A DNA stretch of 64,000 bases from Patescibacteria group bacterium (GCA_004297215.1 SCUM01000001.1:742716-806715); one strand, 5' to 3'. Shown: positions 49,910 to 53,437, counted from the first letter of the stretch. Program-made: numbers and translations. The notes: a model not told the origin generated them from the letters alone.

Positions 49910-52483
49910 ATGGCATTTTTCTTCCGTCATTGCGAGCGCAACGAAGCGACCTCCCGTCGCGAGAAGTTTGTCATTGCGAGGAGGCATCAGCCGACGAAGC
50001 AATCTCCCGTCGCGACGGGGGGATTGCTTCGTCGCCCTGAACGGAACGCCGGGGCTCCTCGCAAAGACAGGTTTTTCTTGTTCGTCGCGACCGCTTTCTT
50101 GCTCGTTGCCCTCCCGGCCGTCGCGGCGGCTCCGAGCGGCGCGGACACGTTCCAGCTGCTCGCCTCTCCCTTCACGGGCGCTGACAACACGGGCGACGGG
50201 GGCACGGGCGCGGCGGCGGACCTCAACTACTTCTACGTGGGCCAGACGTTCACCACCACGATGGAGATCGTGAGCGGCGGGACCGACGCGGCCAACATCT
50301 GGATCGACCACGACACGACGAACGTCACCCCGTCGAGCCTTACGGACGGCAGCTACTTCACCTCCTACGCCGGGCAGAACACTGCGGGCGGCCAGGTGCG
50401 GCTCACCGGGTTCCGCACCAGCGGGACGAGCAGCGGCACCGGCACGTTCGGCACCGTGGACTGGACCATGGTGGCACCAACGGCCGCCGCGTACGGGACA
50501 GGGACTCCCGAGACGCTCGACATCGACGTGGGGGTAATCGGGGACAGCACCGAGTCCAACATTTCCTTGGGCGGCCTCGACATCCTCGACGACGAGGAGG
50601 ACTTCCAGTTCCACGTGTGGGCCGACACGGAAAAGCCGTACGCGCTCAATCCGTCTCCGACCGACGCCGCGACAGGCGTGGCCGTCACGGTGAATTACCT
50701 GTTCGACCTGCGTGATTCGAAGAACGGCGAGGGCGACAACTCGGGGGTCGGCACCGGCGTGTCCACCGCCACCCCGCCCGGCGTCATCACACAGGACGAC
50801 GGAGGCGGGCCTTCGAGCCTCACGGCGTTCGACAGCTATTCCTGTTCCGGCACCTGGGGGACTAACCTGTGCAACGTCACCGTGAACCCGACGAGCCCGA
50901 GCGGCATCCCGGGCGACACGCGCAACTGGGAGTACGACACGAGCTACGACATCGACATCTCCGGGTTCGAGGACCTCGCCTCGGCCTCCCAGGATCAGCT
51001 GGGGGACGCCAACGGCCCCAACGCGATGGATCCGAAGACGTACACCTTCACCACCGAAGCGGACACGGTGCCGCCGCAGGTCGTTTCCGAGACGCCGGCG
51101 CGTACCTCGTCGGGCAACAGCGTGTCCACGAACATCACCGTGGTCGTCCATGACAAGAAGACGTATCCGGGGACCGTGTCCGGCACGGGCGTGGATTCGT
51201 CCACCTGCAAGTTCAACGTCTCCTCGCCGAGCTTCACCCTCACCACCTTCCAGGAAGGGGACGCGGAAGTGACCGTCACCCCGGTGGACTACGGGTTCGA
51301 GTACGAGATCGATCCAGCGACGAGTTTCGCCCAGGACGAGACGGTCACGGTGAGCGCGTTCGATTGCGAAGATTTGGCGACGAACGTGATGGTGACCGAC
51401 ACCTGGACGTTCACGACCGCCGACTCGGACCCGCCGTTCGTTTCCGGGACCGTGCCTGGCGACGACGACGAGATTGCCGACGACGCCGTTTTGGTGCTGC
51501 ACGTGGAGGACAACGGCTCCGGCGTGGACCTGGGAAGCGTGGTGATCTTCGTGGACGGGATTTTCTACACTGACGGGGGCGGGGCCGGGAGCGTCACCAC
51601 CACCGGCACGGACATCAGCTTCGGGAGCTCGCTTGATCTGAACGGCGGCAACTACGTGGGCGACACCACGGGCGTGTCCGGCTCTCCCGCCGATTACACC
51701 TTCACGATCGACCCGGCCGCGGATTTCTCCGCCGGCGAGGCGGTGCCGATCATCGTCTACGCGTCCGACGCGGATGGAAACCTGATGCCGCAGGAGGTGT
51801 ACGCCGCGGTCGTCGAGACGCCGGGAGGAGGAGGCGGCGGAGGCAGCGGAGGCGGCGGGCCCATCATCCTTCCCGGGCGGACCATCGACGACGTGCGCGC
51901 GACGGCGATCGACGAGGATTCCGTGCTCGTCGCCTGGCGTTCCAGCCAGGACGCCACCGCCCGCGTCGCCTACGGCGACCAGTCGCCCTTGTACCTCGGC
52001 AGCGAACCGAATTACGGGTATGCGTCCTCGACCGAGTCCGACGGCCTGTTCCGCACGTATCACTCGGTGGTGATCGACGGGCTTACGAGCGGCATCCTCT
52101 ATCGGTTCCTTCCCATGAATCGCGACCGTTCCGGCGCGGCGTTCGTGGGCCCAGAAGTACGCCTCGCCACCAGGCCGCCGGTCGTGTTCGAGGCCTGCCC
52201 GGACGCAGCGTCCGCGCCGGAATGCCCGCCGGCCCCGGCGCTGTCTTGTCCTGTCGTCCCAGCCCTACCCCCTCCTCCCCCCTCCCCCCTCCCTCCTTCC
52301 AGCATCATCTACGTCCCCGTGCCAGCGCCCGTCACCCGCCCCGTCGCGGTCCCGTCCGCCCCGAGCGGCATCACCGTGCTTGCGCCTCCCGCGCGTCTCG
52401 AACTCATCGAGCGCATCCTGGGCGGCTATGCGCTCGGCGGCACGGCCCGGCCTGGATCCGTGGTCACGATCATCATTCGTTAG
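49910..52483 (+). CDS. Secreted multi-Ig-like (Big/SbsA-like) protein with FN3-like domain and Pro-rich region; probably continues past an in-frame TAG into 52487..53437
   Basis: 857 aa. The ATG at 49910 lies in a repeat. Alternative TTG near 50021 gives a clean signal peptide (RKDR-FFLFVATAFLLVALPAVAAA). Big_5-like domains, a GGGGGGSGGGG linker, an FN3-like domain. Ends ...GSVVTIIIR then TAG. Confidence 0.7.
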   Translation: MAFFFRHCERNEATSRREKFVIARRHQPTKQSPVATGGLLRRPERNAGAPRKDRFFLFVATAFLLVALPAVAAAPSGADTFQLLASPFTGADNTGDGGTGAAADLNYFYVGQTFTTTMEIVSGGTDAANIWIDHDTTNVTPSSLTDGSYFTSYAGQNTAGGQVRLTGFRTSGTSSGTGTFGTVDWTMVAPTAAAYGTGTPETLDIDVGVIGDSTESNISLGGLDILDDEEDFQFHVWADTEKPYALNPSPTDAATGVAVTVNYLFDLRDSKNGEGDNSGVGTGVSTATPPGVITQDDGGGPSSLTAFDSYSCSGTWGTNLCNVTVNPTSPSGIPGDTRNWEYDTSYDIDISGFEDLASASQDQLGDANGPNAMDPKTYTFTTEADTVPPQVVSETPARTSSGNSVSTNITVVVHDKKTYPGTVSGTGVDSSTCKFNVSSPSFTLTTFQEGDAEVTVTPVDYGFEYEIDPATSFAQDETVTVSAFDCEDLATNVMVTDTWTFTTADSDPPFVSGTVPGDDDEIADDAVLVLHVEDNGSGVDLGSVVIFVDGIFYTDGGGAGSVTTTGTDISFGSSLDLNGGNYVGDTTGVSGSPADYTFTIDPAADFSAGEAVPIIVYASDADGNLMPQEVYAAVVETPGGGGGGGSGGGGPIILPGRTIDDVRATAIDEDSVLVAWRSSQDATARVAYGDQSPLYLGSEPNYGYASSTESDGLFRTYHSVVIDGLTSGILYRFLPMNRDRSGAAFVGPEVRLATRPPVVFEACPDAASAPECPPAPALSCPVVPALPPPPPSPLPPSSIIYVPVPAPVTRPVAVPSAPSGITVLAPPARLELIERILGGYALGGTARPGSVVTIIIR
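49915..50040. repeat. CATTGCGAG-family palindromic element overlapping the 5' end of the next ORF
   Basis: GTCATTGCGAGCGCAACGAAGCGACCTCCCGTCGCGAGAAGTTTGTCATTGCGAGG..GACGAAGCAATCTCCCGTCGCGACGGGGGGATTGCTTCGTC. Confidence 0.7.
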
Positions 52484-52486
52484 GAT

Positions 52487-53437
52487 ATGCCCGAACAAGA
52501 ATGGGTCACCCAGGTCACGGCAGATGAGAGCGGGGAATGGTCCGCGCAGGTCGTTTCGGACGTGCCCTCGGGCATGCACACGATCACGGTCCTCGGCGAG
52601 GACGGCACCCGCTCCGACTCGCTCCTGTACGTGGACCGGGAAACGACCGAGGGCGAGGGCCGGCTCCTGTCCGGCGGGCTGTTCGTTTCCCGCACCGACG
52701 CGGTGGTGCCGCCCGCCTTCGCGCTGTCCATGTTCGTGTTCCTCACCGTCATCGTGCTGCTCGCGATCAACGGCGTGCGCCTCGGGCGCAAGACCGATAA
52801 GGCGGAGCGGCGTACGAGGGAAACGGCCCGACATCATCACGGTCGCAACGCCATGGTCGTATGCGTGATCGGCGTGGCCGCGTCGTTCTTCGTGGGCGTG
52901 CTCGTGAACCAGAGCGTGGGGGTGTTCGACCGGTTCTTTCCGGCGCCCGTCGCGCGAACGGTGCGCCTGTCGCTTTCCGGGGCAGTGATCGATCCCATCA
53001 CCTCGAGGCCGGTCGCGGGCGTGGACGTCGCCGCGGGGGACACGGCCGTGCGCACCGACGACGCCGGCCGCTTCGCCTTCTCTGACGTCGACGCCGAGCA
53101 GGGCATGCGCCTCACGCATCCCGCGCTCGCGCGCGCCCTGCGCGTGCGTTTTCCCAAGAGCATCGTCGAGGCCGACCGCTCGCGCGTGAGCGCCTTCCCG
53201 GTGTACGTCCCGTTCGACGCGGCCATGTACAACGCGCTCATCTACGCCGTGGACGCCGATGCCAGGGCGGGCCGCGGCATCTGGAGCCCGGGCGACCTGG
53301 GGGACCAGGAACTCGACCTCGTCGAGGTCACCGCGGACGCCGCCAAAGCAACGGTGGACGCGATCGTCGGCAACGACGGGAACAGCGCGACGTACCGATT
53401 GAGGAAGGAAGGGGACGGATGGAACGTCGTTCCCTAG
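52487..53437 (+). CDS. Continuation: Ig-like domain remainder + TM, basic loop, TM, carboxypeptidase-regulatory-like domain (membrane-anchor module)
   Basis: Same frame as the upstream ORF, separated by TAG + one codon. EWVTQVTADESGEWSAQVVSDVPSGMHTITVLGEDG completes an Ig-like fold. TM helices FALSMFVFLTVIVLLAINGV and AMVVCVIGVAASFFVGVLV. Then SGAVIDPITSRPVAGVDVAAGDTAVRTDDAGRFAF. Confidence 0.6.
   Translation: MPEQEWVTQVTADESGEWSAQVVSDVPSGMHTITVLGEDGTRSDSLLYVDRETTEGEGRLLSGGLFVSRTDAVVPPAFALSMFVFLTVIVLLAINGVRLGRKTDKAERRTRETARHHHGRNAMVVCVIGVAASFFVGVLVNQSVGVFDRFFPAPVARTVRLSLSGAVIDPITSRPVAGVDVAAGDTAVRTDDAGRFAFSDVDAEQGMRLTHPALARALRVRFPKSIVEADRSRVSAFPVYVPFDAAMYNALIYAVDADARAGRGIWSPGDLGDQELDLVEVTADAAKATVDAIVGNDGNSATYRLRKEGDGWNVVP

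Follow-up and report, generated by a model that had tools for sequence, protein, structure and literature searches.

A conserved gene boundary inside an Ig-like domain of a patescibacterial surface protein and the possible rejoining of its two halves

In this study, we analysed a stretch of 64,000 nucleotides (nt) from a Patescibacteria group bacterium (GCA_004297215.1, SCUM01000001.1:742716-806715; the whole stretch is called the window, and positions are counted from its first letter). Two adjacent open reading frames (ORFs) on its plus strand, ORF1 (49910..52483, 857 aa as listed) and ORF2 (52487..53437, 316 aa), lie in the same frame, with a TAG and one codon, GAT, between them. The DNA at the junction reads ...GGA TCC GTG GTC ACG ATC ATC ATT CGT TAG GAT ATG CCC GAA CAA..., the TAG occupying 52481-52483, and it translates as ..GSVVTIIIR, stop, DMPEQEWVTQVTADESGEWSAQVVSDVPSGMHTITV.. 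or, over a longer distance, as ..ARPGSVVTIIIR, stop, DMPEQEWVTQVTADESGEWSAQVVSDVPSGMHTITVLGEDG.. An earlier reading of the window, made from the sequence only, had reported an in-frame TAG between these ORFs, and both its coordinates and the string it quoted proved correct. The features of the two genes that matter for the present work are the following.

49910..52483, plus strand: ORF1, a secreted multi-domain surface protein (ORF list, Pfam matches, orthologs P0003, P0006 and P0007)
50066..50143, plus strand: hydrophobic core of the ORF1 signal peptide, FFLFVATAFLLVALPAVAAA, followed by APSG (Kyte-Doolittle scan)
52394..52480, plus strand: half of an Ig-like domain at the C-terminus of ORF1, with three predicted strands (Big_13 match, AlphaFold2, dN/dS)
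52481..52483, plus strand: TAG, genuine stop of ORF1 (TAG, TAA or TGA at the orthologous position)
52484..52486, plus strand: GAT, the 3-nt spacer from the ORF1 stop to the ORF2 ATG, a junction of the translational-coupling type
52487..53437, plus strand: ORF2, a 316-aa membrane protein (NCBI EPO34_03925, 'hypothetical protein', Patescibacteria group bacterium)
52487..52639, plus strand: half of an Ig-like domain at the N-terminus of ORF2, residues 1-51, with four predicted strands (Pfam, AlphaFold2, dN/dS)
52709..52777, plus strand: ORF2 transmembrane helix 1, residues 75-97, PPAFALSMFVFLTVIVLLAINGV (hydropathy scan)
52778..52849, plus strand: basic loop between the ORF2 helices, residues 98-121, net charge +6 plus three His, predicted to be cytoplasmic
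52850..52909, plus strand: ORF2 transmembrane helix 2, residues 122-141 (hydropathy scan)
52910..53434, plus strand: ORF2 C-terminal domain, residues 142-316, predicted to lie outside the membrane, with a CarboxypepD_reg-like beta-sandwich at its start

After its signal peptide, ORF1 shows weak matches to Big_5-like and Pur_ac_phosph_N (fibronectin type III-like) domains, then a Pro-rich linker and finally RLELIERILGGYALGGTARPGSVVTIIIR. Its sole hydrophobic segment comprises residues 53-78 and is followed by AAA/APSG (Kyte-Doolittle scan; the slash marks the cleavage site, placed by eye), and its orthologs, 792-872 aa in length, have classical signal peptides ending ..AQA/AAPSG and ..VKA/ATPSG. 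ORF1 itself lacks both a C-terminal anchor and a sorting signal. The protein ends ..PGSVVTIIIR, so that its C-terminus is the last residue of the third strand with no tail beyond, and in the orthologs P0003, P0006 and P0007 the last residue falls at position 39/95 of a hidden Markov model (HMM) of the joined domain. An exact look-up of ORF1 among recorded proteins gave no match, probably because of the unusual 5′ end of ORF1 in the window. Nested palindromic repeats (GTCATTGCGAGCG..CGAAGC) lie inside this 5′ end at 49926-50069, and a second copy is present at 32391-32412 on the minus strand. In ORF1 the repeats encode ..FRHCERNEATSRREKFVIARRHQPTKQSP.., and the region before the signal-peptide core is about 52 aa long, compared with about 15 aa in the orthologs. 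A repeat element seems to have entered the coding sequence, and because of the apparent insertion the true start of ORF1 is uncertain.

ORF2 begins with the peptide (M)PEQEWVTQVTADESGEWSAQVVSDVPSGMHTITVLGEDGTR, and residues 1-74 form an acidic tail with a net charge of -10 (charge count). The VPPAFA..MF.FLT motif of its first transmembrane helix is invariant in the orthologs. The C-terminal domain, which is conserved across the family and in fused homologs, matched PF13620 with 25.6 bits, under the cut-off of 32.3. By the positive-inside rule, basic loops stay cytoplasmic, and the tail and the C-terminal domain of ORF2 are therefore predicted to be outside the membrane, in the same compartment as the exported ORF1, a topology that we infer from charge and hydropathy.

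Adjacent ORF1-like and ORF2-like genes were found in eight distinct lineages, drawn from the contigs of the search matches plus further family members. The following junctions were recorded (spacer in lower case, frame of ORF2 relative to ORF1).

Window and L005-L007: ORF1 ends ..TIIIR; TAG gat ATG; frame 0
L004: ORF1 ends ..VIVIIR; TAA cct ATG; frame 0
L003: ORF1 ends ..TIIVR; TAG t ATG; frame +1
L009 (low GC, very distant): ORF1 ends ..GTAEPSTKLLMTIY; TAA t ATG; ORF2 starts MNQTNNLAEAPRIYDLESNSAGDWNIV..; frame +1
L010: ORF1 ends ..GKVTIIVY; TAA t ATG; frame +1
L011/L012: ORF1 ends ..NATIRLIIF; TAA tcgt ATG; frame +1
L002: ORF1 ends ..TIIIR; TGA, 302-nt gap, ATG; frame +2

In all eight lineages, the end of ORF1 coincides with the last residue of the same beta-strand (..TIIIR/..TIIVY/..MTIY/..LIIF), ORF2 opens with an ATG of its own, and the two genes are adjacent, co-oriented and kept together. 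The stop of ORF1 is TAG in three lineages, TAA in four and TGA in one, and the frame offset from ORF1 to ORF2 is 0 in three, +1 in four and +2 in one. In the seven lineages without an insertion, 1, 3 or 4 nt separate the stop from the ATG (3 nt in the window). Divergence among the lineages extends from about 84% amino acid identity down to distant low-GC relatives (ORF1 of L009: 43% over 23% of the query), and the lineages that carry the split come from unrelated samples and assemblers; among named relatives, the closest is a metagenome-assembled genome of Candidatus Uhrbacteria. These junctions directly support the boundary, its conservation and the independent start of ORF2. The two-gene annotation is correct and the TAG is an ordinary stop; that its site is a true, conserved gene boundary we regard as almost certain. 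The possibility that the AGGA in TAGGAT acts as a Shine-Dalgarno sequence was considered; the AGGA ends 1 nt before the ATG, and because it is absent in L003, L004, L009, L010 and L011 it was not taken as a conserved ribosome-binding site.

The gap in L002 is due to a miniature mobile element of 301 nt located exactly between the ORF1 and ORF2 orthologs (L002:3142-3442). It is bounded by terminal inverted repeats of 23 nt (ATGCCCAGCACTACAACAACGAC / GTCGTTGTTGTAGTGCTGGGTAT), and its product is a GIY-YIG protein of 96 aa (PF01541, E=8e-13). The ORF1 stop is followed after 3 nt by the GIY-YIG ATG, and the GIY-YIG stop after 8 nt by the ATG of ORF2, which is still intact. The insertion is apparently flanked by an AT duplication, so that the GIY-YIG ORF and ORF2 both start with ATG. 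This element is absent from the window.

The sequence-only reading had taken the residues on the two sides of the TAG for a single immunoglobulin-like (Ig-like) beta-sandwich, and both the profile matches across the junction and structure prediction bore this out. ORF2 alone matched the Pfam family Big_13 (PF19077) at profile positions 53-85 only, with 13.8 bits. Joining the C-terminus of ORF1 to ORF2 widened the match to positions 33-85, with 24.1 bits when the stop was written as X and 27.0 bits when the halves were directly concatenated, exactly at the gathering score of 27 bits. Matches spanning the junction were also obtained for four other ortholog pairs (19.9-25.6 bits). The Big_13 signature (G.a.P.s.v.I.I and aD..G.W....l..G.H.i.v.deDG) is kept in both halves, from genomes of 65% GC to genomes of 39-50% GC, and these matches directly support the view that the halves are homologous to a single domain. 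AlphaFold2, given the concatenate together with an alignment of 57 intact homologous repeats, predicted a seven-stranded sandwich with a predicted local distance difference test score (pLDDT) of 80.5 and a predicted template-modelling score (pTM) of 0.70; the pLDDT exceeded 90 over residues 21-60, the junction included. Three of the predicted strands come from ORF1 (10-17, 20-26 and 32-38 in concatenate numbering) and four from ORF2 (43-49, 55-60, 67-75 and 80-87). A Foldseek search of the PDB returned generic Ig-like modules, including domains of the adhesins SiiE and Bap, with template-modelling (TM) scores of 0.5-0.69. Pairwise ratios of nonsynonymous to synonymous substitution rates (dN/dS) were 0.11-0.58 at the end of ORF1 (last 20 codons) and 0.05-0.52 at the start of ORF2 (first 24-50 codons). 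With dN/dS below 1 on either side, both half-domains appear to be maintained.

To see how far the family extends, we can turn to a profile built from four ORF2 orthologs and searched against 1.84 billion representatives, which gave 231 representatives at E<=1e-3; most of the best matches were 300-370 aa in length and were aligned from their first residues. When these proteins were searched with the joined-domain HMM, an N-terminal match was found in 81 proteins of 250-400 aa, with a median start at HMM position 44/95 and protein residue 5. Judging from these N-termini, a split at this loop is the usual form in the family. A search with the C-terminal part of ORF1 joined to ORF2 found no protein spanning the junction, all of its matches being one-sided. 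Scans of genome and of metagenome contigs with the ORF2 alignment gave one locus each, on the same Candidatus Uhrbacteria contig.

Single-chain relatives are present as well. In P0097 (locus L014, 39% GC), a rare single-chain homolog, one frame encodes an intact Ig-like domain (..FRGYAKPSSKIKITIHPDESNADLKNIDIQTDVNGYWEY..) and, after it, the membrane hairpin and the C-domain. P0106, P0138, P0144, P0107, P0079 and P0105 lack this Ig domain, and their ORF1-like ectodomain runs directly into the hairpin and the C-domain. Such fused homologs are directly supported by the data, and since single-chain relatives exist, a Rosetta-stone argument can be made for a physical association of ORF1 and ORF2. 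The locus L014:1497-5031 is the only fused homolog with an intact Ig-like domain; it has an unrelated frameshift in the middle of the ORF1 part, near 2690-2760, so that the gene is called in two pieces of 419 and 730 aa; the shift may stem from misassembly or from a true disruption. P0021 (L013:189-1274) is an ORF2-like protein with a whole Ig-like domain at its own N-terminus, downstream of a gene fragment unlike ORF1, and may exemplify another architecture in the family or a fission at another point.

We consider it likely that the conserved boundary arose long ago, when a gene was split within a Big_13-type Ig-like domain, and that the halves of this domain rejoin to tether ORF1. On this reading, the fission would have left ORF1 and ORF2 as two polypeptides, and because the stop and the ATG are 1-4 nt apart, their translation is probably coupled by termination-reinitiation. 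ORF1 would be exported by the Sec pathway through its N-terminal signal peptide, which would then be removed, while the two-helix hairpin of ORF2 would sit in the membrane with the acidic N-terminal tail, carrying four strands, and the C-terminal domain facing outward. Outside the membrane, the three strands of ORF1 and the four of ORF2 could then zip into one seven-stranded sandwich, which would tether the ORF1 ectodomain of about 800 aa non-covalently to the ORF2 anchor and so reproduce the single-chain architecture. That the two half-domains reassemble in trans is a step that we favour by a small margin of confidence.

Several points weigh against this reading. The assembly of ORF1 and ORF2 in trans is one that we infer. 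The Pfam scores are at or under the gathering threshold, which neither half reaches alone. Single-sequence AlphaFold2 prediction of the concatenate was poor (pLDDT 55), and because the better model was made with an alignment of intact repeats and a covalently joined chain, it speaks for compatibility with the fold and not for association. The dN/dS estimates are drawn from 20-50 codons only. Junction DNA was inspected in the eight lineages, and the other representatives, about 80, are known from the protein N-terminus alone. In addition, translocation of a 74-residue tail without a signal is at the long end of known bacterial N-out tails.

The most serious alternative is that the genes are truly split and the halves no longer cooperate, ORF1 being released as a soluble protein and the ORF2 tail being a relic or pairing elsewhere or with itself. 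The poor single-sequence model fits this view, as does the fact that many single-chain relatives do without this Ig domain, which is thus dispensable for the family. However, decay or loss would be the expected fate of a relic half-domain, whereas both halves keep the Big_13 signature across genomes of very different GC content (65% to 39-50%) with dN/dS below 1, ORF1 always ends exactly on the strand, and the genes are adjacent and tightly coupled at every locus examined. We therefore regard a loss of cooperation as unlikely, although it deserves to be kept in mind.

A second alternative is that the TAG is read through in a programmed manner or decoded as an amino acid (e.g., pyrrolysine), either of which would yield a fused protein of about 1175 aa. 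It is suggested by the window and L005-L007, in which the ORFs share a frame with only TAG-GAT between them, and by the fused architecture known in distant homologs. Readthrough needs a conserved frame, usually a conserved stop context, and no start codon. In contrast, TAA is used in four lineages and TGA in one, the frame is +1 in four, in L002 the distance to ORF2 is 302 nt and its frame +2, the share of lineages in frame 0 (3/8) is the level expected by chance, and every ortholog has its own ATG at the same place. As to decoding, the stops of the 29 genes predicted in the window by a simple gene model are TGA (14), TAG (9) and TAA (6). Since TAG ends 9/29 of these genes, global recoding of TAG is unlikely, as the sequence-only reading had also concluded; ORF2 is among the TAG-ended genes, as are all its inspected orthologs (the ORF2 stop is TAG in the window and in L002-L006). 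Readthrough or recoding is thus very improbable.

The remaining possibilities, that a pseudogene arose by a recent nonsense mutation, that the TAG is an error of sequencing or assembly, or that it reflects phase variation specific to the strain, have nothing beyond the in-frame look of the two ORFs in their favour and can be practically dismissed, because the identical split occurs in divergent lineages from unrelated samples and assemblers (from 84% amino acid identity to distant low-GC relatives), both genes are under purifying selection, the window sequence has no homopolymer or simple repeat at the TAG site, and an independently assembled Logan contig (SRR8426588), which may go back to the reads of the window itself, matches it with 100% identity, including the TAG, over 3226 bases. 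The sequence-only reading had offered these three causes, together with programmed readthrough, for the interruption, and all four are contradicted by the split in eight lineages, the varying stop and frame, the conserved ATG and the mobile element between the genes of L002. It had itself named, as an outcome that would speak against its view, orthologs naturally split into two genes, and this is what the comparison found, at the same residue in eight lineages.

The GC content of the window is about 65%. Several junctions in the window have the form stop-N-ATG (6983/6985, 7863/7865, 49241/49243 and 49908/49910), and the ORF1/ORF2 junction therefore resembles other gene boundaries of this genome. 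The gene order is a giant 4299-aa protein, a 221-aa protein, ORF1, ORF2, rpsF and ssb; it is shared with L005/L006, which continue with rpsR, and SecDF is encoded downstream at L011. The gene next to ORF1 is the following.

49243..49908, plus strand: upstream 221-aa gene, ending 1 nt before the ORF1 ATG

A gene of 221-224 aa occupies the same position in L004, L005 and L006, and no Pfam family was matched by the 221-aa protein. Three giant ORFs with high GC content at third codon positions (GC3) lie on the plus strand at 11489-19933 (2814 aa), 20107-27555 (2482 aa) and 36342-49241 (4299 aa). The 4299-aa protein has no meaningful Pfam match and is encoded directly upstream of the 221-aa gene, and a giant ORF is found in the same place in L005. 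The giant ORFs and the 221-aa, ORF1 and ORF2 genes may form a cell-surface gene cluster. The GC content of the window is lower at 4001-6000 (0.50) and 32001-34000 (0.57), with ORF GC3 values of 0.53-0.68; these stretches could be foreign or RNA-rich regions.

The domain shared by ORF1 and ORF2 resembles the Big_13 (PF19077) repeats of giant adhesins in its sequence signature, its predicted seven-stranded sandwich and its structural neighbours among the bacterial Ig-like (BIg) domains of SiiE and Bap, and the N-terminus of ORF2 matches dozens of repeats in multi-Ig giant proteins. Unlike those repeats, it is encoded by two genes, three strands lying at one C-terminus and four at one N-terminus. 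Completion of an incomplete Ig-like fold by another polypeptide is known from the chaperone-usher pili (donor-strand complementation) and the type V pili (strand exchange). The arrangement proposed here would share with donor-strand complementation an incomplete Ig-like fold, strands supplied by a partner and a very stable non-covalent extracellular link. In chaperone-usher pili, however, the missing G strand is given by an N-terminal extension, the subunits polymerise, and a chaperone and an usher are needed, whereas here the three N-terminal strands of the domain come from the C-terminus of ORF1 and the partners presumably pair 1:1; among the called genes at these loci, none for a chaperone or an usher was found.

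As in the split genes of Nanoarchaeum equitans and the split DnaE inteins, one chain is encoded here as two adjacent genes, fused homologs exist, and an association of the products is to be expected. The features expected of a gene-fission pair are present, namely fused homologs and, in the eight lineages, adjacency, co-orientation and co-conservation. In contrast to those systems, the break lies inside a small extracytoplasmic beta-sandwich and there are no intein or ligation motifs; given the position of the break, assembly would follow separate export and insertion. The SEA domain, the GAIN/GPS module and SpyTag/SpyCatcher (split CnaB2) are similar to the proposed mechanism in that an ectodomain is held on a membrane stub by a shared beta-sandwich; SEA and GAIN cleave one chain after folding, and SpyTag/SpyCatcher is engineered and forms an isopeptide bond, whereas here the chains are made separately. 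With readthrough in the A1 protein of phage Qbeta and with recoding of TAG to pyrrolysine, the likeness is limited to an in-frame stop between coding segments; unlike in these cases, the identity of the stop and the frame vary among the orthologs and the independent start is conserved. We found no description of such a split Ig-like arrangement in the literature on split genes, gene fission, strand complementation or Patescibacteria.

For annotation, our results mean that the in-frame TAG calls for no 'repair' and is to be taken neither for the mark of a pseudogene nor for a case of readthrough. To our knowledge, the cell-surface biology and host attachment of the candidate phyla radiation (CPR) are largely unknown. 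Whether a natural split Ig-like domain serves there as a non-covalent 'snap fastener', anchoring a surface protein without a sortase, a lipid or a transmembrane segment of its own, is in our view evenly poised. If so, it would be a new variation on donor-strand complementation, conserved as a module in about 80 protein clusters at 50% identity, and a natural counterpart of the engineered split-domain tags. Its self-assembling three- and four-strand fragments would be of interest in protein engineering, and it would bear on how secreted and membrane proteins meet after separate export. If the halves do reassemble, a widespread natural split Ig-like domain would anchor a large surface protein in the CPR.

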